Virus record (IMG/VR): IMGVR_UViG_3300025009_000896
Span: 1-64,000 of that record
Reading direction: 5' to 3' (one strand)
Length of the DNA: 64,000 nucleotides
Source: a virus
The notes below the pieces were generated by a model. It saw only the letters and a list, made by a program, of their open reading frames with translations. It made no database searches and had not been told where the DNA came from. The number at the start of each line of letters is the position of its first letter. The stretch's first letter is position 1. A program made the translations under genes and the position numbers. Positions 1,212 to 58,181 of this stretch are shown here, piece by piece.

Positions 1212-3527
1212 ATGAAAAATATACTAACCACGCTTTTACTATGTATTTCCCTTGTTGTTGGGGCTGCCACCCGATATGTGGCCACAACGGGAAGTGACGC
1301 AGCGGCAGGAACAATAGATGCACCGTGGGCAACGTGGCAATATGGGTTCAGTCACATAGTGGCAGGTGATACGTTATATATCAGAGGTGGCACCTATCAA
1401 CCCACAGGCACATCGGCAGGAACACCGTTCAGTACCGAGTATTGGGGTGGAGTGGCAATTAGGAACACTGACGGCACGGCCTTGAATAGAATTGTGGTAA
1501 TGAACTATCCGAGTGAAAAGCCCATACTTGATGGAACAAACATAACGGCGGCACAAGGCTCCATTGGTAGCAGATTTGGAATCATAATGCGCAACTGTGA
1601 GTATTGGCACATTAAGGGACTTGAGGTAACGGGGGTGTTGCAATTCCCAACTGAGCTTGGCGTTGGGGGAATAAGGCTCATGGAGGACTGTAACCATAAT
1701 ATTCTTGAACAGATAGTATCTCACGATAACGGGGGTTCTGGAATTACGTTAGTTTATGACTGTACCGATAATCTTATCTTAAATTGTGACAGCTATAATA
1801 ACATAGACCCATATTCAACCCCTACCGCATATAATAATAGCGACGGCATAGAAATAGCCGAGATAGCAGTGGGCATGACAAATACCGTTAGGGGCTGTAG
1901 GATGTGGGGAAACTGTGATGACGGTATGGACTTGTTTGATAACGAGGGCATTGTGGTCATTGATAGTTGTTGGGCATTTTATAATAGTAAGCCCGCAGGC
2001 CCATACGACGCCAACGGCTTTAAGTTGGGAAGAACCAACAATACACATGGAACCGTACGAAGGGTTATTACTAACTCGATAGCGGTAGGCAATCAGGCTG
2101 ATGGGTTTACCACCGGGGGTGATGCTTATTGTGATATGGATATGTTTAACAATACAGCAATAGCTAATAAGTATGGGTTTATGTTTTATTTAACAACCCC
2201 TGCCGACTGTGGTACCATTACAGTTAGAAATAACATAGGATATAATAATGTTGACAACTTCAGGCATAAGTATGCCCCGATGGTTGTTGACCACAATAGT
2301 TACGATAGCGACTTTCAGACCGATGGGCCCGGGATATCTGCTGCCGACTTTGTTACCGTAGATACTCTTGGATTAAGATACTCAAGAAAGTCCGGTGGAT
2401 ACCTGCCGGACATTTCCTTCGCAACATTGGATGCTACATCCGACATGATAAATGCTGGAGTAGACGTGGGGATAGCCTACGACAGTGATGCACCCGACCT
2501 TGGCTATATAGAATATGTGTCAGAGGCACCGCCTGCATCTCCCCTTGTTTCAACAACCACGCCATATAATGTAAGCATAAGAAATGGCACAGGAGGGGGA
2601 ACTGTCACCTATGACGGAGGGGGAAGTATAACAGACAGGGGGATTTGTTGGAGTACTTCTGCTGATCCCGAAACAACCGATAATAGCATAAGTAGTGGGA
2701 CGGGATTGGGATCGTTTACCGCAGCCATAACCGGATTAGCAGCCAATACCACGTATCACATAAGAGCCTTTGCTACCAATGAAGTGGCAACATCTTATGG
2801 TGCAGATGTGGAGTTTACAACGCCTGTATCTGCAAGCTACCGATCAGTTGGAGGTAAGATTTTGTTTATCGGACATAAAGTTTCGAGTAATGTGGCGAGG
2901 ATACCCGTTTTTCCACAGATACTTACGGGTACAACGGATGGATATGTTACCAATGTGGGAAGCGTAGCCGTTACAATGCCCACGGGGGTTGCGGCAGGGG
3001 ACTTGATACTGGTCTTTATTGGCAACAGATATGGCTCAGTATTAGCAGTCAACACGGGGGTGAGTGGAAACAACTGGAATATAGAACATCAGACCGTTGC
3101 AACGGACAATCCTACGGCTGCTATAATATGGAAGATAGCCGAGGCATCTAACGCACTAACGCTTACTATTACCCCAAACGGAAACTGCAACTATGTAGCA
3201 TATAGAATATCAGATTTTAACGCCGCAGACCCACTAACCGTTACGGCAGGAGAGATAACCGTAGCGACCAATTTTGACCCTCCGGCTAATCAGGGCGCAT
3301 ACGGAACCCTTAAATATCTATGGATGGGCTGTGCCTATTCTGCTAACGCCTCAGCAACAGTAGCCCCCACTGACTTTGGTGATCTATACGTCAATGACTA
3401 TAATGGTGACAGTCAAAGTGTGGCATGGAGGGAGTACGAATATGGTAGCAGTTATGATCCGGGGGCGTTTACGTCACCCGGGGGAACGTACATTGCTCTC
3501 ACCTGTATAATTAACCCTATCGAATGA
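1212..3527 (+). CDS. Right-handed beta-helix (PL9 pectate-lyase-like) protein with signal peptide and FN3-like domain; depolymerase/receptor-binding candidate
   Basis: MKNILTTLLLCISLVVGA|ATRYVATTGSD..GT..PWAT, GDTLYIRGGTY, N.DDG.D, NGFKLG, APDLGY motifs; RGICWST...YHIRAFATN FN3-like repeat. Confidence 0.75.
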   Translation: MKNILTTLLLCISLVVGAATRYVATTGSDAAAGTIDAPWATWQYGFSHIVAGDTLYIRGGTYQPTGTSAGTPFSTEYWGGVAIRNTDGTALNRIVVMNYPSEKPILDGTNITAAQGSIGSRFGIIMRNCEYWHIKGLEVTGVLQFPTELGVGGIRLMEDCNHNILEQIVSHDNGGSGITLVYDCTDNLILNCDSYNNIDPYSTPTAYNNSDGIEIAEIAVGMTNTVRGCRMWGNCDDGMDLFDNEGIVVIDSCWAFYNSKPAGPYDANGFKLGRTNNTHGTVRRVITNSIAVGNQADGFTTGGDAYCDMDMFNNTAIANKYGFMFYLTTPADCGTITVRNNIGYNNVDNFRHKYAPMVVDHNSYDSDFQTDGPGISAADFVTVDTLGLRYSRKSGGYLPDISFATLDATSDMINAGVDVGIAYDSDAPDLGYIEYVSEAPPASPLVSTTTPYNVSIRNGTGGGTVTYDGGGSITDRGICWSTSADPETTDNSISSGTGLGSFTAAITGLAANTTYHIRAFATNEVATSYGADVEFTTPVSASYRSVGGKILFIGHKVSSNVARIPVFPQILTGTTDGYVTNVGSVAVTMPTGVAAGDLILVFIGNRYGSVLAVNTGVSGNNWNIEHQTVATDNPTAAIIWKIAEASNALTLTITPNGNCNYVAYRISDFNAADPLTVTAGEITVATNFDPPANQGAYGTLKYLWMGCAYSANASATVAPTDFGDLYVNDYNGDSQSVAWREYEYGSSYDPGAFTSPGGTYIALTCIINPIE

Positions 3528-5938
3528 AGAAGCTAATTACTATACTATTATTTATGTCCCTTGGATTTGCCGTAGCAGCACAGGCGGTGGTTACAATCGA
3601 GGGGAAGGACACCACCATAACCGGAGCCGGGGGCTATGCTATTACACGAACGTCGGCTATACTCCTTAGGTTCTTAAATAACATAGTCCTATACACCTAC
3701 ACAGAAGACCCTATAGTTAACTGTGGAACGAACGACTACACCATAGGGCAATCCACAAACCTAAACGATGCCGTTATTAAGGGCAATAGGGTTACGTGGA
3801 CATCTGCAACTGAGACGGGAAGCACGCATGGTCTGATGGCGGGGTATAACACTGGCTATGATATTGCATACAACTATATTGACTCAACTCAGTATGGAGT
3901 GACACACGAAGGTGGATATCCCAACCACACGTCAATGGACAACTCCACGGGAGGTATCTATTACAACATATTTAAAAACAATAACTTCAGCGTCATTGAA
4001 AAGGGGTATGCAGGTACACGTATTTATAATAACACCTTCTACACCAATAAGAACGAGTTTTCAACGTTTATAGGGATTAAGGAGTCAGATACAGGGGGTA
4101 TAACAGAACCATATCCGGTAACCAGTGGCACTAAAGTCTTTAACAACATCTTCTATAATGATGGCACAACTGCATTTCACGCCATATCAGTGGGCGAAGC
4201 CACAGACGACACCCCAGAGGAGATGGATACGGTTGGGCTTGAAATTGATTACAACATTTATTTTTATGAAAATAGCGCTAATAACGAGCCAACCTTCGAG
4301 TTTAACGGAGACAGTAAGACGTGGACGGAATGGAGGGCGTTAGGCTATGACGAACACTCTGTTATACTTGATCCTCAGTTTGTAGACTTCATAGACCTTG
4401 TTCCTGCATCCAAAGACCTAATTGATATAGGCACTAACTTGGGCACTGAGTTTGATGATGGTCTTTCGACTACAGCAACGTGGGTTGCAGGCGTTACCCC
4501 TACGACTGAAGTTCAGGGTGACTTATGGCAAGTGGGGGCAAGGGTATATGAAACAGACGTAATATACTCAGCAACCTATTATGTGTCAACCACGGGGAGC
4601 GACGATAACCCCGGCACCTACGCACTACCATGGGCTACTTGGGGCGAGGCATTCAACTCTGCCTCGGTACAACCCGGAGATACCGTTTACTTCAGGGGCG
4701 GTGTTTACTCAATGACATCCGATAACCTTGCCTATCCTTATAGTGAAGGATCGGGGTATAACGTAGGTCGTGACGGCACAATAGGGGACACCATAAGGTA
4801 TTGGGCCTACCCGGGCGAAACACCTATATTAGACTGTGACAACATTAGCTTAGCAAGTGGGTCTAATAGGGGCATTAACGGTAACGATATAAACTATGTT
4901 CACTTTAAAGGACTAACGGTTAGGAACGTTAATCAATCTGCGGCAGGGAATAGCACCTATGGGTGGATAATAAACGGGGACAACTTAAAGGTTGAAAACT
5001 GTGAGGTATATAATACCGGAGGTAGGGGGTTTTACTCTACGGGTCATGAGGTATATTACCTAAACTGTGACTCACATCATAACTGCGACTCACTCACAGC
5101 GGCACTCCCGGGTAATGATGGTGTGGGATTTCAGAACACCGACCTTACAAATGCTGATGGCAGTATTTACTATTGGAATTGCAGGGCATGGATGAATGGT
5201 GACCAAGGCTTTTCTGCTGTTTCAATAGGCTACTTAGAGTTTGACGGATGTTGGTCGTTTAATAATGGACTTTATCAGGGTGAGGGACATGGGTTTAAAA
5301 TGGGTGCTGTAGGGCTTGAGGGTGAACAGCCTGAGTTTGGCCCGCTGAAGAGAAAGTATACAAACAACGTTGCCGCATTCAATAGGGCTAATGGATGGAC
5401 AACCAACGACAACACAAGCTATCTGGCCAGAACCATGTATGTCTATAACAACATTGCTTACCACAATGGCTACCCTACGGGATGGGGAGGATTGGCTGCG
5501 GGGTTTGTTATTTACAATACGGCTTCGATTGATGCCGAAGAGTTAGACCGCACCTACCACAATAACATTGCCTACGGCAACGAAGATGGCGACACCTTTA
5601 TTCCCGCCGGGGCTTTATATACCCACTCCAACAACTCATGGGACTTAAGCGTAACCGTTTCTGACGCTGACTTTGTGTCAGTGGACAGTACGGGAATAAC
5701 AGCAGCAAGACAAGCAGATGGGTCACTCCCTGCTAATGATTGTTTTACTGACTTTCTGCAATTAGCTACTGGTAGCGAGCTAATTGACGTTGGGGTTAAC
5801 GTTTCTATACCCTACAACGGCGTAGCCCCCGACCTTGGCCCGTTCGAGACTACTGATGCAGGCACCCCAACAAGCATAACGCCATTAAAATATGGCAATA
5901 AGTTCCTAAAAAGTGGAGAAATATTCTTAAAGAGATGA
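3524..5938 (+). CDS. Two-domain right-handed beta-helix (PL9-like) protein with signal peptide
   Basis: Hydrophobic N-terminus MKKLITILLFMSLGFAVAA; YNNTF/FNNIF repeats; second domain YYVSTTGSDDNPGT..PW, GDTVYFRGGVY, GHGFKMG, APDLGPFE. Confidence 0.75.
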   Translation: MKKLITILLFMSLGFAVAAQAVVTIEGKDTTITGAGGYAITRTSAILLRFLNNIVLYTYTEDPIVNCGTNDYTIGQSTNLNDAVIKGNRVTWTSATETGSTHGLMAGYNTGYDIAYNYIDSTQYGVTHEGGYPNHTSMDNSTGGIYYNIFKNNNFSVIEKGYAGTRIYNNTFYTNKNEFSTFIGIKESDTGGITEPYPVTSGTKVFNNIFYNDGTTAFHAISVGEATDDTPEEMDTVGLEIDYNIYFYENSANNEPTFEFNGDSKTWTEWRALGYDEHSVILDPQFVDFIDLVPASKDLIDIGTNLGTEFDDGLSTTATWVAGVTPTTEVQGDLWQVGARVYETDVIYSATYYVSTTGSDDNPGTYALPWATWGEAFNSASVQPGDTVYFRGGVYSMTSDNLAYPYSEGSGYNVGRDGTIGDTIRYWAYPGETPILDCDNISLASGSNRGINGNDINYVHFKGLTVRNVNQSAAGNSTYGWIINGDNLKVENCEVYNTGGRGFYSTGHEVYYLNCDSHHNCDSLTAALPGNDGVGFQNTDLTNADGSIYYWNCRAWMNGDQGFSAVSIGYLEFDGCWSFNNGLYQGEGHGFKMGAVGLEGEQPEFGPLKRKYTNNVAAFNRANGWTTNDNTSYLARTMYVYNNIAYHNGYPTGWGGLAAGFVIYNTASIDAEELDRTYHNNIAYGNEDGDTFIPAGALYTHSNNSWDLSVTVSDADFVSVDSTGITAARQADGSLPANDCFTDFLQLATGSELIDVGVNVSIPYNGVAPDLGPFETTDAGTPTSITPLKYGNKFLKSGEIFLKR

Positions 5939-50159: not shown

Positions 50160-50846
50160 ATGCAATTAAAGGATATAGATGTTTCAAGACTATCATTCGA
50201 CATATTTGATAGCGACTTCACAACGACTATAAAAGAAAAGATACCTGAGTTCAACGAATACGAAGGAGTGATACCTGAGTTAGACGTATTCAGGTTTGTT
50301 GTTATAATGTGGGATATGAAGTCTCCTATGTTACGTGAGGTTGATGACTATTATGCACGTATGTATGCTACCGCATCAATGGTGGGGTTCCCAAGGACTA
50401 AAAACAACTTCAGCAAGGAGGCAGACGAGATAATCATAGGTAAGAATGAGAGCGTGAACAGGATGATAGTAGCCTATACTGCGTACATGGGCGTACCCGA
50501 GTATCAGTACCTAATGGCTTATCAGGCGCTGTTCGCAAGTGAATACGCTAAAGTTTTGAGGGGCAAGGGCGGCAAGGACAGCGACAAGATATTAGAGAAC
50601 GCAAGCGGGAAGGTCACTAAGTTCACGAGGGCTATCTTCGGGTCGGGAGACTACGATGAGTACTCTTTGAGGAGACAGGCGTTGTATCAGAAGATTGAGA
50701 AAGACAAATTAAGATTAAGACCCGAGCAGATCATCAGGGACTTAACGGATAACGGAGATTTGCCTGAAGACTTTAACCCCTACGGTGACTACTCTATCGA
50801 TATAAATAAGGATATTAAGTTCGTTGGTGATGGCAAAGAAGGTTGA
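50160..50846 (+). CDS. Hypothetical protein; terminase small subunit candidate
   Basis: Helical 228-aa ORF overlapping the TerL start. Confidence 0.45.
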   Translation: MQLKDIDVSRLSFDIFDSDFTTTIKEKIPEFNEYEGVIPELDVFRFVVIMWDMKSPMLREVDDYYARMYATASMVGFPRTKNNFSKEADEIIIGKNESVNRMIVAYTAYMGVPEYQYLMAYQALFASEYAKVLRGKGGKDSDKILENASGKVTKFTRAIFGSGDYDEYSLRRQALYQKIEKDKLRLRPEQIIRDLTDNGDLPEDFNPYGDYSIDINKDIKFVGDGKEG

Positions 50847-53166
50847 TTACACCGAACTTTACGTTCCGGCTGACACTGTTTTTGCAATTAATAACCTCGA
50901 TCCAGATCGAAAGACTATCGTTTTGTCTCTGCCCAAACCACCGAACGTAAACACTATTGATAATTTTGGCCTACACCCTGACGAACAGTATTTCAAACGG
51001 TGGAAGACACCTAAGAAGCTATTAACTATTGAAAAAGAGGTCTTAAGAGAACTTCAGGATATTCAAAAGGGCAACAGACAGGAGACTGTAACGGGGTATA
51101 AAATAATTGACAAGTTCTGGGATAAGGTAGAAGAAGAAAGGGACGACTTAGAGGCAGAGATAGACTTCATTAAGAAGCTGTGGTGGCATAGGATGAACGG
51201 CTATTGGTTCTACAACGACGGCAAACCAACGTACATAACCGGAAGGCACTTCATGTTCCTGAACTTCTTTTATCAACCCGATATAACTACTAACGACGGG
51301 TACCCTGAGTACAGAGACAGACACCGGAGGGAGTTTCTATTCAGAGAGTATCTGAGGCACGCTACCGAGACGTTTGCCAAGAGAGATGAAAGAGGGTGGG
51401 CTGTGCCTAATGCTGATGGTAGTTATGATATGATTGATGTGGGGTCGAGAGTAAGCTATGGAGACATACATCCTAAGTCCCGAAGGAACGGTTCTACAAT
51501 GATGGCATTGTGTGATATGATTGAAAGTTCGGAAAGGAGTTTTGGTATCTACTCTACTATAATTTCAAAAGACGGTGAGGCCACCGAGGAGCACTACAAC
51601 CTTAAGCTACTTCCTTCGTGGGTAATGAGGCCGTATTTTCTTAAACCCGTGTGGCAGGGATCGTCCCAACCAACGCAGATAAAATATTTTCCTCCTAAAA
51701 ACTACTACGGCAACGAAGCCCTGATGAGTGTCATTGACTACACCGTATCGGCCTCGGAGACTAAAAAAGATGGGTCTAAGTTTAATGGAGAACTCGTATG
51801 CGATGAGGAGGGCAAGGTTTCTGGATTAGGAGTCAACGTCTTACAGAGGTGGGACGTAAATAAGAACGCACTTGCCCTTGGTGACGGTACTAAGATATTA
51901 GGATACTCTACTCACATCTCAACGGTAGAAGACATCAATGCTGCGGGTATGGCCTTCTTGGATATGCTTGAACTCTCTGACTTTTATCAAAGGGGAGAGA
52001 GTGGGCAGACTACATCAGGTCTTATGGCTCACCTGTATCCTTCTTATGACGGTCAGGAAAACTTCATAGATCGGTATGGTATGTCAGTCATTGACACCCC
52101 CACAGACCGACAGTGCCGCTTATCTCATTCAGCAATCTTCGCTACGCTTAAAAAGGGAGCCAAGCAATATCAACAGGAAAAGAGAGATGACTTCTTAAAG
52201 AAGGGCACCCCTGCTGCTATGCAGTCTTATAGGGCTTATGTTAAGAAGTACCCGTGGAAGACAAGCGAACTCTATATGTCAACAGTCTCAGACATGGGCT
52301 TTGACTATGAGATACTTGACACCCGAATCATGGAGTTGAGGAAGATGAAGTCCTTGGGTAAGATGCCATATAAGGTCGGGAACTTCTACCGTGAGGGAGA
52401 CCCGTTAGAGGGTAGGGTATATTGGAAGACAGAACCCGAAGGGAAGTTTGAGTTATCCATGGAACTTAAGCCTGAAGAAGCAAATCTTAAACGTAAAACT
52501 TTGGTTTGGGATGGCACTAAGATGTCTATGGTGCCAGCTTGGGAGCCTGTTTATAAAACGAGGTTTACCGCAGGGGCTGATCCATTTCGTTTCAGGAACA
52601 GCAAAGACATCACCACTAATAAGCAATCTGATGGCGGAATAGCAGTATTATGGCACGATTTTTCTAAGCCCAATAAGTCAGAGAATAGGAAGTTTGTATT
52701 GTCATATAGGTATAGACCTCATACATTAGAAGAATACTGTGAGGACTGCATAAAAGTGTGTGAGTATTTTGGGGCTATGTGTTATCCCGAAAACAACCTC
52801 ACAGGAGTATATGAGCACTTCATTAAGAGGATGAGGGGCGGATATCTTAAGTACGATCAAGACTCGATCACGGGTCGAGCAAAGGATACCCCCGGATATT
52901 ACGCATCTCCGGGAACAATAAACGACGGGATGTCCCAAATTAAAGATTACATAGTCTTCAATGGAGCAGAAGAAAATCACTTAAGTTTTTTGGAAGAGGT
53001 GCGTGGCATGAGAAGTGTAGATGATTTAACTAATAACGATAGGTTTGCAGCGCACATGGCCAGCTTACTCGGCGCCCTCAGCAGCTACGGCAAGGCATCG
53101 GATTTTATGAATACTCAAACAATAGACCTCGGGAAAGTCTCTTGGTTACAAAAAAGATCATTTTAA
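50830..53166 (+). CDS. terL: Terminase large subunit (crAss-like type)
   Basis: GYWFYN.G.PTYITG.H, K.RR.GST Walker A, CDEEGK Walker B, GADP and ENN...ND nuclease motifs. Confidence 0.9.
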   Translation: MAKKVDYTELYVPADTVFAINNLDPDRKTIVLSLPKPPNVNTIDNFGLHPDEQYFKRWKTPKKLLTIEKEVLRELQDIQKGNRQETVTGYKIIDKFWDKVEEERDDLEAEIDFIKKLWWHRMNGYWFYNDGKPTYITGRHFMFLNFFYQPDITTNDGYPEYRDRHRREFLFREYLRHATETFAKRDERGWAVPNADGSYDMIDVGSRVSYGDIHPKSRRNGSTMMALCDMIESSERSFGIYSTIISKDGEATEEHYNLKLLPSWVMRPYFLKPVWQGSSQPTQIKYFPPKNYYGNEALMSVIDYTVSASETKKDGSKFNGELVCDEEGKVSGLGVNVLQRWDVNKNALALGDGTKILGYSTHISTVEDINAAGMAFLDMLELSDFYQRGESGQTTSGLMAHLYPSYDGQENFIDRYGMSVIDTPTDRQCRLSHSAIFATLKKGAKQYQQEKRDDFLKKGTPAAMQSYRAYVKKYPWKTSELYMSTVSDMGFDYEILDTRIMELRKMKSLGKMPYKVGNFYREGDPLEGRVYWKTEPEGKFELSMELKPEEANLKRKTLVWDGTKMSMVPAWEPVYKTRFTAGADPFRFRNSKDITTNKQSDGGIAVLWHDFSKPNKSENRKFVLSYRYRPHTLEEYCEDCIKVCEYFGAMCYPENNLTGVYEHFIKRMRGGYLKYDQDSITGRAKDTPGYYASPGTINDGMSQIKDYIVFNGAEENHLSFLEEVRGMRSVDDLTNNDRFAAHMASLLGALSSYGKASDFMNTQTIDLGKVSWLQKRSF

Positions 53167-53177
53167 TTTTTTATTAT

Positions 53178-53185
53178 TATCTTTG
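53178..53185 (+). promoter_or_regulatory. Bacteroidetes -7 promoter box of tRNA operon 1
   Basis: TATCTTTG. Confidence 0.8.
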
Positions 53186-53189
53186 TGAC

Positions 53190-53240
53190 ATGAGAATGAA
53201 TCAACATATAGAGCAGCCGATAAACTTACTTGGTGGGTGA
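53190..53240 (+). CDS. Attenuator leader peptide 1, MRMNQHIEQPINLLGG
   Basis: Near-leaderless ORF; CAA CAT ATA GAG CAG CCG ATA match the downstream Gln/His/Ile-UAU/Glu/Pro tRNAs. Confidence 0.8.
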   Translation: MRMNQHIEQPINLLGG

Positions 53241-53261
53241 GGTAACTCTATATTGTATATA

Positions 53262-53291
53262 GCCCTCCCCACAAGGAGGGTTTTTTGTTTT
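53262..53291 (+). terminator. Attenuator terminator 1
   Basis: GCCCTCC-CCACAA-GGAGGGT followed by Ts; competing strand GTGGGTGAGG at 53233-53242. Confidence 0.85.
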
Positions 53292-53292
53292 A

Positions 53293-53377
53293 CGGAGTGT
53301 AGGTCTGTAGCTGGTAGCAGTCCTGCCTTGGAAGCAGGTGGAGCAATCCCTCGTCGGTTCGATCCCGGCCACTCCGA
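53293..53377 (+). tRNA. tRNA-Pro(TGG) with an unusual long variable arm
   Basis: CGGAGTG/CACTCCG; CCTGC-CTTGGAA-GCAGG; GTCGG-TTCGATC-CCGGC. Confidence 0.85.
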
Positions 53378-53382
53378 CTTAT

Positions 53383-53453
53383 TGAGGCTTCGTTTAACGG
53401 TAGGACGCACGGCTTATACCCATGTAATCAGAGTCCAATTCTCTGAGCCTCAA
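53383..53453 (+). tRNA. tRNA-Ile(TAT)
   Basis: TGAGGCT/AGCCTCA; loop CTTATAC; resembles the Ile(GAT) gene at 53871. Confidence 0.8.
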
Positions 53454-53455
53454 CT

Positions 53456-53529
53456 GTGTCAGATGCTCGTATGGACAGAGTGACGGATTGTGACTCCGTT
53501 AGAAGCCAGTTCAAATCTGGTCTGACACC
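53456..53529 (+). tRNA. tRNA-His(GTG)
   Basis: GTGTCAG/CTGACAC, C73; ACGGA-TTGTGAC-TCCGT. Confidence 0.85.
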
Positions 53530-53533
53530 CTAT

Positions 53534-53604
53534 GTTCGGTTCGTCTATCGGTAGGACGGCGGGTTTTCATCCCGTAAAGGCGAGTTCGATTCTCGCACCG
53601 AATA
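53534..53604 (+). tRNA. tRNA-Glu(TTC)
   Basis: GTTCGGT/ACCGAAT; GCGGG-TTTTCAT-CCCGT. Confidence 0.9.
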
Positions 53605-53609
53605 CATAT

Positions 53610-53680
53610 TGCCCTGTCGTATAGAGGTGGTACACATGGCTTTGAACCATGCGGAGAAGGGTCAGTACCTTCCGGGGCAT
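53610..53680 (+). tRNA. tRNA-Gln(TTG)
   Basis: TGCCCTG/CGGGGCA; CATGG-CTTTGAA-CCATG; atypical T-loop GTCAGTA. Confidence 0.8.
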
Positions 53681-53689
53681 CAAAATAAA

Positions 53690-53720
53690 TTTGCATATTA
53701 AATTAAAAGTATTATCTTTG
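53690..53720 (+). promoter_or_regulatory. Bacteroidetes -33/-7 promoter of tRNA operon 2
   Basis: TTTG...TATCTTTG. Confidence 0.85.
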
Positions 53721-53739
53721 CAGTAATTAAGGCATAAGG

Positions 53740-53814
53740 ATGCAAATGGTAAGAAAAAATATGGTGAATATTGACCGCACAGGCGCAACCGTGCGAAAGG
53801 GTATCCCCATATAG
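53740..53814 (+). CDS. Attenuator leader peptide 2, MQMVRKNMVNIDRTGATVRKGIPI
   Basis: 22 of 24 residues are M/V/R/K/N/I/D/T/G/A, the amino acids of the 11 downstream tRNAs. Confidence 0.8.
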   Translation: MQMVRKNMVNIDRTGATVRKGIPI

Positions 53815-53839
53815 TTCTTTGAAAGGATTATTAAGGCGG

Positions 53840-53870
53840 ATGCCCTCACAAAATGGGGGCATTTTTATTT
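53840..53870 (+). terminator. Attenuator terminator 2
   Basis: ATGCCCTCA-CAAAA-TGGGGGCAT followed by Ts; competing AGGGTATCC at 53798-53806 pairs with GGATGCCCT. Confidence 0.85.
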
Positions 53871-53941
53871 TGGCTTATAGTTTAATGGTAGAACGCCTCG
53901 CTGATACCGAGGTAATTCAAGTCCGATTCTTGGTGAGCCAA
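53871..53941 (+). tRNA. tRNA-Ile(GAT)
   Basis: TGGCTTA/TGAGCCA; CCTCG-CTGATAC-CGAGG. Confidence 0.85.
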
Positions 53942-53947
53942 CAACAT

Positions 53948-54018
53948 TGTGGGGTAGAGTAACGGTAACTCGTGGGGCCCATAACCCCAAGCTGAGGGTT
54001 CAACTCCCCCTCCCGCAA
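53948..54018 (+). tRNA. tRNA-Met(CAT), initiator-like
   Basis: TGGGG-CCCATAA-CCCCA with consecutive G-C pairs in the anticodon stem. Confidence 0.8.
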
Positions 54019-54024
54019 CTAATT

Positions 54025-54098
54025 GGGAATGTAGCTCGTATGGAAGTAGCTACGGCCTGTTAAGCCGAAGGTAGAAGGTTCGAGTCCTTCCGTTCCCG
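54025..54098 (+). tRNA. tRNA-Asn(GTT)
   Basis: GGGAATG/CGTTCCC, G73; CGGC-CTGTTAA-GCCG. Confidence 0.85.
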
Positions 54099-54102
54099 CA
54101 AT

Positions 54103-54174
54103 GCTCTTATGGTGTAATGAACAGCACAGGGGTCTTCTAATCCCTTAGTTTGGGTTTGATTCCTAATAGGAGCA
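54103..54174 (+). tRNA. tRNA-Arg(TCT)
   Basis: GCTCTTA/TAGGAGC; loop CTTCTAA. Confidence 0.8.
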
Positions 54175-54179
54175 CAAAT

Positions 54180-54254
54180 GCCTTCGTCGGCCCCTTGGTG
54201 GGGAACCAGACTGTCACTCTGGTAAAACAGACGGATCGTAACCGTTCGGGGGCG
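54180..54254 (+). tRNA. tRNA-Asp(GTC)
   Basis: GCCTTCG/CGGGGGC, G73; CCAGA-CTGTCAC-TCTGG; atypical T-loop ATCGTAA. Confidence 0.75.
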
Positions 54255-54257
54255 CAA

Positions 54258-54332
54258 GGGCTGTTCGTATAGTGGCTATTACTTCTGTTTTGCAAGCAGG
54301 AAACGAGATTTCGATTATCTCACAGTCCACCA
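54258..54332 (+). tRNA. tRNA-Ala(TGC)
   Basis: G3:U70 identity pair; loop TTTGCAA; encoded CCA. Confidence 0.85.
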
Positions 54333-54334
54333 AT

Positions 54335-54406
54335 GCGGGATAGGTGTTGACACATACACAGGAGTCTTCCAAACTTCAGTAGACGGAGGGTTACCGTCAT
54401 CCCGCT
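54335..54406 (+). tRNA. tRNA-Gly(TCC)
   Basis: GCGGGAT/ATCCCGC, U73; loop CTTCCAA; atypical D-loop and T-loop. Confidence 0.75.
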
Positions 54407-54410
54407 CTAA

Positions 54411-54481
54411 GTGATCGTAGCAAATCGGTTATGCCCCGCCCTTTTAAGGCGGTGAGATTGGTTCGACTCCAATCGGTCACA
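54411..54481 (+). tRNA. tRNA-Lys(TTT)
   Basis: GTGATCG/CGGTCAC; CCGCC-CTTTTAA-GGCGG. Confidence 0.85.
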
Positions 54482-54486
54482 CAAAT

Positions 54487-54559
54487 GCGCTCATAGCATA
54501 ATGGAAAGTGTGCAAGGCTACGAACCTTGGCGGTTGGAGTTCGACTCTTCATGGGCGTA
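54487..54559 (+). tRNA. tRNA-Arg(ACG)
   Basis: GCGCTCA/TGGGCGT; CAAGG-CTACGAA-CCTTG. Confidence 0.9.
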
Positions 54560-54564
54560 CTAAT

Positions 54565-54636
54565 GCTCCATAAGCATTGATGGCGATGCGCTAGTCTTGT
54601 AAACTTGAAAGCAGGGTTCGATTCCTTGATGGAGCT
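54565..54636 (+). tRNA. tRNA-Thr(TGT)
   Basis: GCTCCAT/ATGGAGC; loop CTTGTAA. Confidence 0.85.
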
Positions 54637-54692
54637 CAGGTGGAATTTACAAACTATTTGGAGGTTACAAATCTTTTGTATATCTTTGTGTT

Positions 54693-55112
54693 ATGGAAAA
54701 GAAAAAAGAATGTCCTAAATGTGGAATTAAAAAAACAATAGATTATTTTACTAAGTCTAAATCGCGCAAGGATGGGTTTGGGTCTTTTTGCCTAGAGTGT
54801 GGAAGAAAATACGGGCGGCTTCATTATAAAAATAATAAAGCTGAATATATTAAAAGAATATCCTCTAACAAAGAAAGGGTTCGTGATCTTTATATAACTC
54901 TTAAAAAGTCATATGTATGCAGTAAGTGCGGGGACAATAGATGGTATGTGTTAGATTTTCATCACGAAGGAAATAAGGAATCTGACATAGCCCATATGGC
55001 ATCGGAGGGATATTCAATAGATTCCATTAAAAAAGAGATAGAAAAATGTATAGTGTTATGTTCTAATTGCCACAGAGAATTACATTACAAACAAAATGGG
55101 GGCATAGTTTAA
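54693..55112 (+). CDS. HNH endonuclease inserted in the tRNA array
   Basis: CxxC...CxxC, C.KCG...LDFHH...EIEKC.VLCSNCHRE.H; own TATCTTTG at 54681-54688. Confidence 0.85.
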   Translation: MEKKKECPKCGIKKTIDYFTKSKSRKDGFGSFCLECGRKYGRLHYKNNKAEYIKRISSNKERVRDLYITLKKSYVCSKCGDNRWYVLDFHHEGNKESDIAHMASEGYSIDSIKKEIEKCIVLCSNCHRELHYKQNGGIV

Positions 55113-55167
55113 TTGGCAAAACGTTTGTGTTACATACAAGTCATGACGTTCGAGTCGTCTGCCCCTA
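55098..55167 (+). tRNA. tRNA-Val(TAC)
   Basis: GGGGGCA/TGCCCCT; TTTGT-GTTACAT-ACAAG; 4-bp T-stem. Confidence 0.7.
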
Positions 55168-55175
55168 CTAATATT

Positions 55176-55199
55176 GTTCGATTCCAGTAGAGACTACAA
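55176..55199 (+). pseudogene. tRNA 3'-half remnant
   Basis: GTTCGATTCCAG-TAGAGACTA-CAA with no 5' half. Confidence 0.45.
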
Positions 55200-55204
55200 G
55201 TTTA

Positions 55205-55236
55205 TTTGCATATATTAAAAACAATGATTACCTTTG
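55205..55236 (+). promoter_or_regulatory. Bacteroidetes -33/-7 promoter of tRNA operon 3
   Basis: TTTG...TACCTTTG. Confidence 0.85.
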
Positions 55237-55243
55237 CCTTGAA

Positions 55244-55303
55244 ATGAGAAATTGTTGGTCATATAGTTCGTTTTTACTCTTGCTCTCAAAGCGAGGTAGA
55301 TGA
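55244..55303 (+). CDS. Attenuator leader peptide 3, MRNCWSYSSFLLLLSKRGR
   Basis: TCA TAT AGT TCG TTT TTA CTC TTG CTC TCA match the downstream Ser/Tyr/Leu tRNAs. Confidence 0.8.
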   Translation: MRNCWSYSSFLLLLSKRGR

Positions 55304-55325
55304 CCTATATATCCATATAGCATAG

Positions 55326-55356
55326 ACCTCGCCCATAAAGCGGGGTTTTTTATTTT
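55326..55356 (+). terminator. Attenuator terminator 3
   Basis: ACCTCGC-CCATAAA-GCGGGGT followed by Ts; competing GCGAGGT at 55291-55297. Confidence 0.85.
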
Positions 55357-55432
55357 GCTCCGGTAGCCCAATTGGTAGAATGGCAACGGGTTTAAGCCCC
55401 GTTCAGTGTCGGTTCGAATCCGACTCGGAGTA
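55357..55432 (+). tRNA. tRNA-Leu(TAA), short variable loop
   Basis: GCTCCGG/TCGGAGT; ACGGG-TTTAAGC-CCCGT. Confidence 0.85.
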
Positions 55433-55437
55433 CAAAT

Positions 55438-55513
55438 GCCGCAGTAGCAGAATTGGCACGTGCGTTAGTCTTAGAAACTAATAGTTATGTGAGTTCGAAT
55501 CTCACCTGCGGTA
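55438..55513 (+). tRNA. tRNA-Leu(TAG), short variable loop
   Basis: GCCGCAG/CTGCGGT; TTAGT-CTTAGAA-ACTAA. Confidence 0.85.
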
Positions 55514-55517
55514 CTAA

Positions 55518-55609
55518 GGATGGGTGAACCCCAGTTGGCCTAAGGGGGACGGTCTTGAAAACCGTAGGTCGCTCAAAACGGCGTGGGGGTTCGAGTCCCT
55601 CCCCATCCG
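55518..55609 (+). tRNA. tRNA-Ser(TGA)
   Basis: GGATGGG/CCCATCC, G73; ACGGT-CTTGAAA-ACCGT; long variable arm. Confidence 0.85.
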
Positions 55610-55615
55610 CAATAT

Positions 55616-55684
55616 GGGAGTAATTCTTTGGAGAAGACGGGTCTGTAACACCCCAAATAGAAAGTTCGATGCTTCCTACTCCCA
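55616..55684 (+). tRNA. tRNA-Tyr(GTA), minimal (short D-loop, no long arm)
   Basis: GGGAGTA/TACTCCC; GGGT-CTGTAAC-ACCC. Confidence 0.7.
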
Positions 55685-55689
55685 CTAAT

Positions 55690-55774
55690 GGAGGGCTGCT
55701 GTAATGGTATCAGAGCGGTTCGCTAAACCGTCCGTCAGCAATGGCGTGGCAGGGTTCGACTCCCCCGTCCTCCG
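55690..55774 (+). tRNA. tRNA-Ser(GCT)
   Basis: GGAGGGC/GTCCTCC, G73; loop TCGCTAA; long variable arm. Confidence 0.8.
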
Positions 55775-55823
55775 CACTGATTTCTCACATTCACTATCTT
55801 TGTGGATATAAAAATATCCGCAA

Positions 55824-58181
55824 GTGATTAGACTCGAAAAGTATATCGGCGGGATAAGCCCAAGTAGAGACATAGCCCCCGAGAAAAAGACAGAAGTATA
55901 TTGTAGAAAAAATGCCGAGTTTCTGTATGGTCTTTGGTGCGGATCGGCCACAGCTTGGGGCTATGACTCCCTCTCGTTTTTTAATGAGATGCGGCAGTAT
56001 AGCAATGGGGCTCAGGATACAAATCAATATAAAAGTTTTTTAACCAACTCGGGGGCAAATAACTCTGAGACTTTTAGTCTGTATGATAATGATGCAGGCA
56101 TAACGCAACGAGCAAAACGCGACGGATATTATAACCTGCTATGGCAGAATCTTTCTCCTGCGCCGAAGATTCTCAATGCATTACACGGGGCTTTGGGTTC
56201 TTATGATTACGATCTTTACTGCGATACCATAGATGCCAATTCGAGGGGATTGGTAGAGTTTGAAAAGTTTAAGAAGTTTCACGAGGCTCGTGATATAAAG
56301 TGGCAAACGGAATATAAAACTAAGGCAGGTATCCCCGTCGACGAAGACGCTAACTTTCCTAAGACACTTGAGGAATTAGAAGCCTTCTCCGCAAGGGAAG
56401 GGTTTAAACTGAATATAGCCCGTGCTATGCAGAAGGTGCTAAGGCATGGGTTTAATGTCAGCGATTGGGACGGGTCTATCAGGAAGAAGCTGTTAGACGA
56501 CCTTATTACTTTAGGCTACTGCGCCGCAGAAGACTTGTATGACGACGAAGATAGGCTGTTTAAAACACAATGGCTTGACCCCGCAAGGACTGTGATGCAA
56601 TTTTCCCACGAGAAAGATTATTCGGATGCAGAATATGGTGGGCACTTCTCAGAGTGGACAATCTCTAATGTAAGGCGTAAAAGACCTGATCTTACTGAAG
56701 ATGAGTTGTATGCTTTGGCTAAAAACAATAAGGGCAATTTTAACAACCCAACAATACAGTGGGGGGAGAGAACGAGTATGCTTGACATAACAAGTAACTC
56801 TTACCTTTATGATGACTTCAAGGTAGCAGTGTTTAAGGCTTATTGGATAGATACCGACACTTACAAGAGCCTCTACTATAACAACAACTCCGGTCGGGAG
56901 ATGGTCAAAGAGGTGGGGTATGATGAGAAGATAACCCCCTTAACCAAAAACCAAATAGCTAAAGGCAAAAAGCAAGAGGTAAAACAGACTAAAATCAGGG
57001 TTGTTTATCAGTGTTCATGGGTAGTGGGGTCTGAGATATGTTGGGATCATGGTAAGCTATTGATGGGTGCAAGGCCGCAGCCGTCTAAGCCTAAGATACC
57101 TATCCACGTTGAGCAGTTGCTACAACCTTCTATTGTCTACAGGCTTAAGCCTATCTTAGACTCAATAGCCTTGACGTGGCTACAGCATCAGAACTCTATG
57201 GCTAAGATGATAGAGAAGGGCTATGCCGTGAATATGAGCATGTTGATGAATGTAACGATGAATGGGAAGGATGCATTAGACCCTGCTGGTGTTTTAAATA
57301 TGTGGAAGCAGACGGGGATTCTACCTTATATGTATGGTGGGGCTAATGGGCAATACCCGGGTGGGGCCGCTATTCCCGTCACTCCTATTGACGGAGGATT
57401 AGGGAATAGAATACAGGAGACCGCTATGGCCTTAGAGACTAACTTCAAGCTAATTGAGGAGATAGTGGGGATAAACCCTGTTGCAATGGGGTCTACTCCT
57501 ACTAAAGACTCACAGGTAGGTACTACCGAGATGGCGATGCAGGCCACATCCAACGTGCTTAAACCTATAGTAGAGGGTATGTTCGAGATCAAGCAGAGTC
57601 TTGGTTCAAGTTTAATGTTAAGAACACAGATAGGTCTTAGGGTAGATAAAGACATAAGAGATGCCTATGCAGGTATTATCTCTCCTTCTGATATTAAGTC
57701 GTTGGTTTTGGCAGAACACAATAGTGTTCAGTATGGCATTAGCCTTAAGGCCAAGCCTGATGATAAACGTAAAGCTACGCTGCTTAACTTCATTACTCTT
57801 GAAGTAGAGAAGGGCACATTGGGTTCACCGGAAGGAATGTACTTTGCCGAAAGATTAGAATCGGGTGCAGACATGATAGAACTCCGTCAGGAGATAGCCT
57901 ATGCAATAGAAAAAGGACAGCAGCGTAAGATGCAAGAGTCGTTGGCTACTATCCAAGAGCAGAATAAGGGTATGCTTGAAAACGAACAGCTTAAGGGGCA
58001 GAACGAACAGGCTAAGATCAATGCCGAGGGACAGGTGAAGATGGCTGAAGAAGCCCTAAGAGGGGATATAAAGCATAAGTTACAGAGACAACAGAATAAT
58101 GCAGAATTAATGAGCAGACTCTTTGATGATGTGGCTGCTGAAAAAGAAATAAAGAATGACAACACCAGAAGACAGGCTTAA
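55824..58181 (+). CDS. Portal protein
   Basis: 785 aa, between TerL and scaffold/MCP; R.YS.G.QD..QYK, I.EIVGIN....GSTP, Gln-rich helical C-terminus; promoter at ~55796. Confidence 0.8.
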   Translation: MIRLEKYIGGISPSRDIAPEKKTEVYCRKNAEFLYGLWCGSATAWGYDSLSFFNEMRQYSNGAQDTNQYKSFLTNSGANNSETFSLYDNDAGITQRAKRDGYYNLLWQNLSPAPKILNALHGALGSYDYDLYCDTIDANSRGLVEFEKFKKFHEARDIKWQTEYKTKAGIPVDEDANFPKTLEELEAFSAREGFKLNIARAMQKVLRHGFNVSDWDGSIRKKLLDDLITLGYCAAEDLYDDEDRLFKTQWLDPARTVMQFSHEKDYSDAEYGGHFSEWTISNVRRKRPDLTEDELYALAKNNKGNFNNPTIQWGERTSMLDITSNSYLYDDFKVAVFKAYWIDTDTYKSLYYNNNSGREMVKEVGYDEKITPLTKNQIAKGKKQEVKQTKIRVVYQCSWVVGSEICWDHGKLLMGARPQPSKPKIPIHVEQLLQPSIVYRLKPILDSIALTWLQHQNSMAKMIEKGYAVNMSMLMNVTMNGKDALDPAGVLNMWKQTGILPYMYGGANGQYPGGAAIPVTPIDGGLGNRIQETAMALETNFKLIEEIVGINPVAMGSTPTKDSQVGTTEMAMQATSNVLKPIVEGMFEIKQSLGSSLMLRTQIGLRVDKDIRDAYAGIISPSDIKSLVLAEHNSVQYGISLKAKPDDKRKATLLNFITLEVEKGTLGSPEGMYFAERLESGADMIELRQEIAYAIEKGQQRKMQESLATIQEQNKGMLENEQLKGQNEQAKINAEGQVKMAEEALRGDIKHKLQRQQNNAELMSRLFDDVAAEKEIKNDNTRRQA

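Follow-up and report, generated by a model that had tools for sequence, protein, structure and literature searches.

A probable leader-peptide attenuator ahead of a phage transfer RNA operon retains codons for three missing transfer RNAs

Ahead of the third transfer RNA (tRNA) operon of an uncultured Bacteroidota phage lies an element, at positions 55205-55356, that is quite probably a ribosome-dependent (leader-peptide) transcription attenuator gating this operon. The element was found in a 64,000-nucleotide window of viral DNA (positions 1 to 64,000 of the IMG/VR record IMGVR_UViG_3300025009_000896); all coordinates below are those of the window unless another genome is named. The window belongs to a single-contig genome of 83,188 bp that is probably complete, since about 100 bases or more are shared by its two ends. 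It carries an array of 21 tRNA genes in three blocks, sited between the gene for the large terminase and the portal gene, and a promoter box, a small open reading frame (ORF) and an intrinsic terminator stand ahead of each block. Computation established the parts of the element, the conservation of both of its alternative RNA structures, the match of leader to operon and the tracking of this match across phages, and a deletion at the end of the operon.

The element consists of the following parts:

55205-55236, plus strand: promoter-like elements of leader 3, read from the sequence (-33-like element 55205-55208; -7 box 55229-55236)
55244-55303, plus strand: leader ORF 3, 19 codons plus stop
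55253-55288, plus strand: sensor core of leader 3, 12 codons, exclusively for Cys, Trp, Ser, Tyr, Phe and Leu
55261-55310, plus strand: hairpin 1:2, anti-antiterminator or pause hairpin (55261-55284 with 55290-55310)
55291-55332, plus strand: antiterminator 2:3 (55291-55297 with 55326-55332; inner stem 55305-55310 with 55315-55320)
55324-55356, plus strand: intrinsic terminator 3:4 (stem 55324-55348 of nine pairs with a loop of seven, then a T-run; 8 bases before tRNA-Leu)

The codon content of the leader follows the content of the operon behind it. The ORF, its 12-codon core and the codons listed for it by a first-pass annotation of this DNA agree with our own reading. In a simulation of random peptides with phage amino-acid usage, a run of 12 that includes all six of the amino acids supplied by the full operon 3 had a p of about 1e-6; against the reduced set that this genome encodes (Leu, Ser, Tyr) the run is just 5, and p = 0.016. 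The leaders of the other two blocks behave likewise. The core of leader 1 comprises exactly the amino acids of its block (5/5) and that of leader 2 does the same (10/10), and the simulations, run with the phage's own amino-acid usage, gave 1.8e-5 and 1.7e-5, respectively. Jointly the three cores cover all 20 amino acids, as the annotation had noted. Ile is the sole amino acid to occur in two of them, as ATA in leader 1, whose block has Ile-TAT, and as ATT/ATC in leader 2, which has Ile-GAT. When we screened 894 small ATG-initiated ORFs of the genome, only the three leaders passed, each ahead of its matching operon.

Behind the terminator, the operon continues with these genes:

55357-55433, plus strand: tRNA-Leu (TAA); ARAGORN default, Rfam
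55438-55514, plus strand: tRNA-Leu (TAG); ARAGORN default, Rfam
55518-55610, plus strand: tRNA-Ser (TGA); ARAGORN default, Rfam
55616-55685, plus strand: tRNA-Tyr (GTA), a weak call; ARAGORN at a lowered threshold only, Rfam 26.8 bits for a cut-off of 29
55690-55775, plus strand: tRNA-Ser (GCT), the final gene of operon 3 in this genome; ARAGORN default, Rfam
55776-55823, plus strand: deletion junction, where relatives have Trp-CCA, Phe-GAA and Cys-GCA; from alignment with contig L063
55795-55802: promoter box of the next gene, 20 bases after Ser-GCT and followed by the portal ORF

The cognate tRNAs that had been assigned to the leader's codons are therefore present, Leu-TAA, Leu-TAG, Ser-TGA and Ser-GCT at the default setting of ARAGORN and Tyr-GTA at the lowered threshold only; the stretch called as tRNA-Tyr is 82.9% identical to the corresponding stretch of Tenacibaculum phage Gundel_1. 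For the whole array the default setting yields 18 tRNAs, a slightly lowered threshold adds Gln-TTG and Tyr-GTA, and the 80% threshold adds Gly-TCC. Low-threshold calls inside leaders and ORFs, including those of the large terminase (TerL) and the portal, were treated as spurious. Both Leu tRNAs (55357-55514) are just 77 bases long and seem not to have the long variable arm that a bacterial tRNA-Leu usually has, and those of relatives share the short form (73-84 bases).

It had been claimed that the array contains no Cys, Trp or Phe tRNA, and we arrive at the same result: none was found anywhere in the 83,188-bp contig, either by ARAGORN at three thresholds or by blastn with the Trp, Phe and Cys tRNAs of relatives. 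The annotation had gone on to predict that operon 3 of relatives contains these genes and that they have been lost here. A leader-3 DNA pattern gave 25 metagenome matches, of which 17 are true homologues (with ORF, terminator and tRNAs) and 8 are chance matches; one further viral contig (L038/L042) brings the number of distinct leader-3 contigs to 18. DNA pattern scans of the viral contigs retrieved no additional ones, and GTDB genomes gave 4 matches, all chance. In the homologues the order of operon 3 is Leu-TAA, sometimes Leu-CAA, Leu-TAG, Ser-TGA, Tyr-GTA, Ser-GCT, Trp-CCA, Phe-GAA, and the prediction was borne out: Trp-CCA stands behind the leader in 15 of 15 contigs that reach far enough and Phe-GAA in 14 of 14 (for some of these genes ARAGORN needs the 80% threshold), while in the loci examined a Cys-GCA tRNA with a reduced D arm directly follows Phe. 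Ordinary ARAGORN calls this tRNA in L051, L053, L055 and L068, and the mitochondrial-type mode calls it at 8 of the 9 loci examined, L042 being recognized only by alignment; when lineages are compared, changes in the acceptor stem of this tRNA compensate one another. The Cys-GCA tRNAs (L042, L044, L047, L050, L051, L055, L063, L065, L068) measure about 68 bases and have an unusual T loop, and in several lineages ordinary ARAGORN and Rfam overlook them. An 'Arg-TCT' call and an undetermined one given by ARAGORN in L051, L065 and L063 proved to be misparsed Leu-TAG homologues.

With Trp, Phe and Cys added, the tRNAs of the full operon 3 correspond exactly to the six amino acids that the leader core samples. 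Behind no other leader did we find a Trp, Phe or Cys tRNA in relatives. Since three cultured outgroup phages (see below) also keep Trp, Phe and Cys in their Tyr/Ser operon, loss in the present genome is the parsimonious explanation, and we regard the loss of Trp-Phe-Cys as well supported. In the L063 alignment the 13 bases that follow Ser-GCT look like the 3' end of the Phe tRNA found in relatives, too short a stretch for a claim that a relic survives. In L045 and L066 the first Leu tRNA of operon 3 is gone and the leader DNA is unchanged, another case of a tRNA lost with its sensor kept.

Among relatives the leader changes in ways that spare its frame and its composition. The frame is preserved in 8 peptide variants (13 DNA variants), and the length differences between them are in frame. 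Coverage is complete throughout, six of six in 8/8 peptides of leader 3, five of five in 7/7 of leader 1 and ten of ten in 9/9 of leader 2. Changes within the core of leader 3, such as a Cys/Trp order swap and a Ser/Leu swap, leave the composition as it was. The -7 box, which lies 7 bases from the start codon here, lies 4-7 bases from the ATG in every leader-3 variant. The promoter consensus of Bacteroidota is TAnnTTTG, and the boxes ahead of the tRNA blocks resemble what we take to be this type; a sigma-70 scan is uninformative for such promoters.

The RNA of the leader can adopt two mutually exclusive structures, and both are conserved. Hairpin 1:2 followed by the terminator is the minimum-energy fold (z = -3.9) and also the RNAalifold consensus of 10 variants, in which 97.9% of the cells of this structure are paired; compensatory changes occur at two 1:2 pairs, and 100% of the cells of terminator 3:4 are paired. 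The alternative, antiterminator 2:3, removes the 5' arm of the terminator, and its own 5' strand consists of the last codons of the ORF, which a ribosome at the stop codon would cover. It is paired in 97.0% of cells in the same 10 variants, and controls with slid partners gave 25-59% for the two structures. The 2:3 duplex has an energy of -12.5 kcal/mol, against -4.6 +/- 1.7 for shuffled sequences, none of 500 shuffles being as good; one of its pairs changes from U-A to C-G in 3 sequences of one lineage. Compensatory changes are seen at four pairs overall, mostly in one lineage, and the Cys/Trp order swap is itself compensated at alignment columns 22-77 (U-A in 7 sequences, G-C in 2). The pairing of 55291-55297 with 55326-55332 that the annotation had named is thus real and kept in 10/10 aligned variants. 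Its two 1:2 pairings fared less well: they can be drawn in the window, but are absent from both the minimum-energy fold and the RNAalifold consensus, and the first is not conserved in relatives.

To relate these structures to the position of a ribosome we used a crude equilibrium model, in which a 28-base ribosome footprint is masked codon by codon. The probability of the terminator was 0.95-1.0 without a ribosome or with one at the start or the stop, and at least 0.82 for any stall before or after codons 4-13. For stalls at codons 4-13 it was lowered to values between 0.70 and 0.00, and at codons 6-12 it was 0.00-0.17. The codons that are constrained in composition coincide with this stall-sensitive window, and the variable flanking codons lie outside it. 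The model works in 7 of 10 leader-3 variants. In leader 2 of this genome it gives no clear 1:2 hairpin.

The anatomy of the element, its conservation and the way in which leaders vary together with the content of their operons suggest that read-through into the tRNA genes is conditional. Transcription would start a few bases before the ATG and a ribosome would translate the 19-codon leader. Smooth reading to the stop codon would place the ribosome over segment 2 (55291-55310), so that the terminator forms and the tRNA genes stay off. A ribosome stalled in the core for want of charged Cys, Trp, Ser, Tyr, Phe or Leu tRNA would instead break hairpin 1:2; the freed segment 2 could then pair with segment 3, the terminator would be blocked and RNA polymerase would proceed into the tRNA genes. 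With no ribosome at all, 1:2 and 3:4 would both form and transcription would stop. We infer that the leader is translated and that stalling causes the read-through, and the attenuator would then be a trp-style sensor of the supply of the very tRNAs it controls. Its natural trigger would presumably be loss of host tRNAs, through host shut-off or tRNA-cleaving defences. The leader would sample the ancestral set of the operon (Leu, Ser, Tyr, Trp, Phe, Cys), and because this genome deleted the Trp, Phe and Cys genes, three codon types of its sensor would now be orphans, a record of the lost tRNAs.

The same arrangement of promoter box, small ORF, terminator and tRNA block is present in three cultured phages of Flavobacteriia. 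The tRNA-level match noted above led to Tenacibaculum phage Gundel_1, and thence to Maribacter phage Panino and Cellulophaga phage phi38:1. Their leaders lie at:

phi38:1 (L078, NC_021796): 208-285, 1669-1758, 2912-3001
Panino (L077 and L075, PP540027): 522-602, 1543-1617 and 3529-3630
Gundel_1 (L074, NC_062747): 4880-4942, 5530-5601

Searching GenBank phages by blastn with leader 3 and leader 2 gave no match, the cultured leaders having no detectable DNA similarity to them. The grouping of tRNAs also differs: phi38:1 and Panino group Leu-TAG, Leu-TAA and Arg-ACG with Pro, Glu, Gln and His, and Asn with Tyr, Ser, Trp, Phe and Cys, and phi38:1 places Ile-TAT in the large block. The leaders follow these operons. 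We scored 14 leader-operon pairs from this genome, L063, phi38:1, Panino and Gundel_1, using coordinates and ARAGORN calls only, and in 14 of 14 the longest in-set run was obtained with the leader's own operon (5-20 for the own operon, 0-5 for the others). The Tyr/Ser-type leaders of phi38:1 and Panino cover six of six of Tyr, Ser, Asn, Trp, Phe and Cys. Some of these leader ORFs are annotated as hypothetical (phi38:1 gp066, Panino CDS0063 and CDS0108) and others are unannotated. The Cys identity of the tRNA at 5325-5398 of Gundel_1 (Rfam 42.3 bits) was read by eye, and some low-threshold calls in the second block of Panino are probably false. That block also contains a permuted transfer-messenger RNA (L077 2791-2999; Rfam 62.2 bits), and a 49-codon hydrophobic ORF precedes its leader on the same transcript.

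Several observations weigh against a working attenuator. We found no RNA run that contains this stretch; the one run labelled as RNA (X18) held only contigs of the relatives' tRNA-like pieces and is probably DNA. Under the equilibrium model 3 of 10 leader-3 variants lack a clear window (minimum terminator probability 0.53, 0.23 and 0.90), and 5 of 8 cultured-phage leaders have none. Antiterminator complementarity, significant in 6 of 11 leaders (p <= 0.014), is borderline in 1 and not significant in 4. Covariation of 2:3 is not significant either, 170 of 500 shuffles reaching the observed score. Covariation is thin overall: the three sequences with most compensatory changes form one lineage, so that each change is one event. 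Per-column conservation of the leader is as high as 84%, in phages with 44-55% identity between their portals, so that the variants may not be independent but stem from one cassette exchanged recently. On the minus strand of the leader a frame of 30-41 codons is likewise open in all variants, for which we noticed no promoter or terminator of its own. Leader 1 of phi38:1 contains an Asn codon, the Asn tRNA being in another operon, and leader B of Gundel_1 a His codon without a His tRNA; here, Cys, Trp and Phe codons persist in leader 3 though the genome is without those tRNAs. Several tRNA calls were made at lowered thresholds or by reading the anticodon loop by eye. Finally, the attenuator would sense charged tRNA, so amino-acid starvation would open it uselessly.

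Some of these points would suit a leader that is translated and matched in codons to its operon but followed by a fixed, leaky terminator, which insulates the operons from each other or sets their dosage, while the ORF loads ribosomes or consumes or 'tests' the phage tRNAs. Such a terminator would stay closed at all ribosome positions, as the equilibrium model has it for one leader-3 variant and for 5 of the 8 leaders from cultured phages, and it would have no use for antiterminator complementarity, which 4 of 11 leaders lack at significance. A fixed terminator, however, needs neither the strong and conserved 2:3 pairing found here, with its 5' strand exactly beneath the terminating ribosome, nor the coincidence of the composition-constrained codons with those whose stall opens the terminator, and we consider this explanation unlikely. 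It is far harder to maintain that the element is an untranslated structured RNA, such as a processing signal for tRNA precursors or a small RNA, with the ORF and its composition as by-products. The nucleotide conservation of 84% per column and the good fold (z = -3.9) would fit such an RNA, but it would leave unexplained the composition match at about 1e-6, three matched leaders in one genome and the tracking of their own operons by the unrelated cultured-phage leaders in 14 of 14 pairs, and the in-frame length changes and composition-keeping swaps speak against it as well. That leader ORF 3 encodes a small functional (hydrophobic) peptide is hardly credible. Its core is indeed hydrophobic, and leader peptides acting in trans are known in Sinorhizobium; however, a peptide that folds or sits in a membrane would not be expected to change its order and keep its composition, leaders 1 and 2, which are hydrophilic, share the design, and the outgroup leaders share composition rather than sequence.

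A separate doubt concerns the deletion, which could be an assembly artefact or a minority variant. The genome derives from a metagenome, and in runs X1 and X2 a 1,026-base contig of similar depth aligns at 55338-55693 with 28 differences; the same groundwater samples thus contain a second phage, related to this one, whose operon 3 has diverged. On the other hand, a 41,753-base contig in both runs spans the junction between Ser-GCT and the portal gene with 0 differences, at a depth of about 30, the same as that of the flanks. Because X1 and X2 are probably the source samples, this contig is not independent support. No remnant of the three genes occurs elsewhere in the closed contig, and we hold an artefact to be very improbable.

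The attenuator reading also extends beyond a single genome. On balance, and with more reserve than for the element itself, we favour the view that a widespread group of Flavobacteriia phages, phi38:1 included, carries a complete, self-regulating back-up set of tRNAs. Two or three multivalent leader-peptide attenuators would sample codons of all 20 amino acids, each turning on exactly the tRNA genes for codons at which ribosomes are slow, as when the host has been shut off or a tRNA-cleaving defence attacks. Sensor and output being separate pieces of DNA, the leaders would serve as a readable record, in which an orphan codon (Cys, Trp and Phe here; His in Gundel_1) points to a lost tRNA and gives a rough date for the loss.

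The purpose of phage tRNA genes has been argued over for fifty years. The candidate reasons are codon compensation and escape from tRNA-targeting defences (PMC10264068, PMC11555353, PMC11464382). If the attenuators act as proposed, the sensors themselves would reveal the purpose, namely demand-driven replacement of a failing host tRNA pool, and leader-peptide attenuation would extend from metabolic enzymes to the translation apparatus. The orphan codons have already pointed to three tRNA genes that were then found in the predicted operon of relatives, and leader and operon content co-vary in unrelated leaders. The same design in cultured phage-host pairs (phi38:1, Panino, Gundel_1) opens it to bench study, and compact multivalent sensors could double as reporters of tRNA supply. 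Infection transcriptomes exist for phi38:1 (PMC5335546). The accessible text of that paper and of the papers on Panino (PMC11590407) and Gundel (PMC8776804) give tRNA counts without the word 'leader', and their supplements may bear on small-ORF expression.

The neighbouring genes that frame the array were named from PHROGs; a Pfam search at E <= 0.001 gave no family for TerL, portal or the endonuclease:

50824-53166: large terminase (TerL); PHROGs
54693-55112: HNH endonuclease ORF with a promoter box of its own, which splits block 2 ahead of Val-TAC
55824-58181: portal ORF; PHROGs, E = 3e-51

The portal has its nearest cultured relatives, which are about 22% identical to it, in Flavobacterium, Cellulophaga and Maribacter phages. 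A portal-protein search of viral contigs gave no confirmed close relative. In an alignment of portals from 41 loci, tRNAs lie near the portal in just 5, and the closest relatives by this protein are P0002 (69% identical) and P0003 (67%). The leader and tRNA cassettes lie between terminase and portal here and upstream of the terminase in most relatives, namely L017, L044, L045, L055, L063 and L065; L038 and L051 group with this genome against the upstream-of-terminase relatives, and in L053, 2.2 kb separates operon 3 from operons 1-2. These varied positions suggest that cassettes move as units. Relatives carry insertions of 428-690 bases at different sites of the array, and homing endonucleases may drive the loss and reshuffling of tRNA genes. 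The tRNA-Pro (53293-53378) has 86 bases here and 72-76 in relatives, which may reflect an insertion or a miscalled boundary.

Among known systems, several Rfam leader families resemble the element in shape only. Trp_leader (RF00513) matches it over the whole model with 27.7 bits (E = 0.0087), and five relatives with 25-30 bits; Leu_leader reaches 25.6 on L055 and Phe_leader 27.9 on Gundel_1. All of these are below the gathering scores (41, 50 and 55; 41 for Trp_leader), and the leader belongs to none of the Rfam leader families. T-box leaders of Firmicutes likewise sense tRNA charging and choose between terminator and antiterminator, but they bind tRNA directly and need no ribosome; an Rfam scan of 52900-56000 at E <= 1 gave no T-box match. 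Leaderless poly-cysteine short ORFs of mycobacteria also sense supply through codon content and control downstream genes, but they sense one amino acid and control protein-coding operons, in another phylum (bioRxiv 10.1101/834739).

The nearest idea in print is the trn array of Anabaena sp. PCC 7120, also an extra tRNA set, which is normally silent and comes on when translation is impaired. According to the available text of the two papers on it (PMC8421152, PMC10272220), the array is cellular and, unlike what is proposed here, is controlled at its promoter, where direct repeats and the repressor TrcR act. That text of PMC8421152 contains none of the words 'leader peptide', 'attenuat' and 'terminator', and that of PMC10272220 none of 'leader', 'attenuat', 'uORF' and 'stall'. 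Our literature search found no paper on leader-peptide attenuators ahead of tRNA genes.

The classical attenuators are those of the enterobacterial trp, his, leu and phe operons, and those of thr and ilvGMEDA, each of which responds to two or more amino acids. A theory paper treats attenuation of this kind (PMC1183508). The phage element has in common with them a short ORF with regulatory codons, the alternatives 1:2, 2:3 and 3:4, a stop codon in segment 2 and a terminator before the first gene. It differs in what it controls, tRNA genes rather than biosynthetic enzymes, and in how it samples: leader 3 covers six amino acids and leader 2 ten, mostly with 1-4 codons each and with no run of a single codon, and the three leaders together cover all 20. 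It differs, too, in its near-leaderless mRNA, in its Bacteroidota-type promoter and in being carried by a phage.

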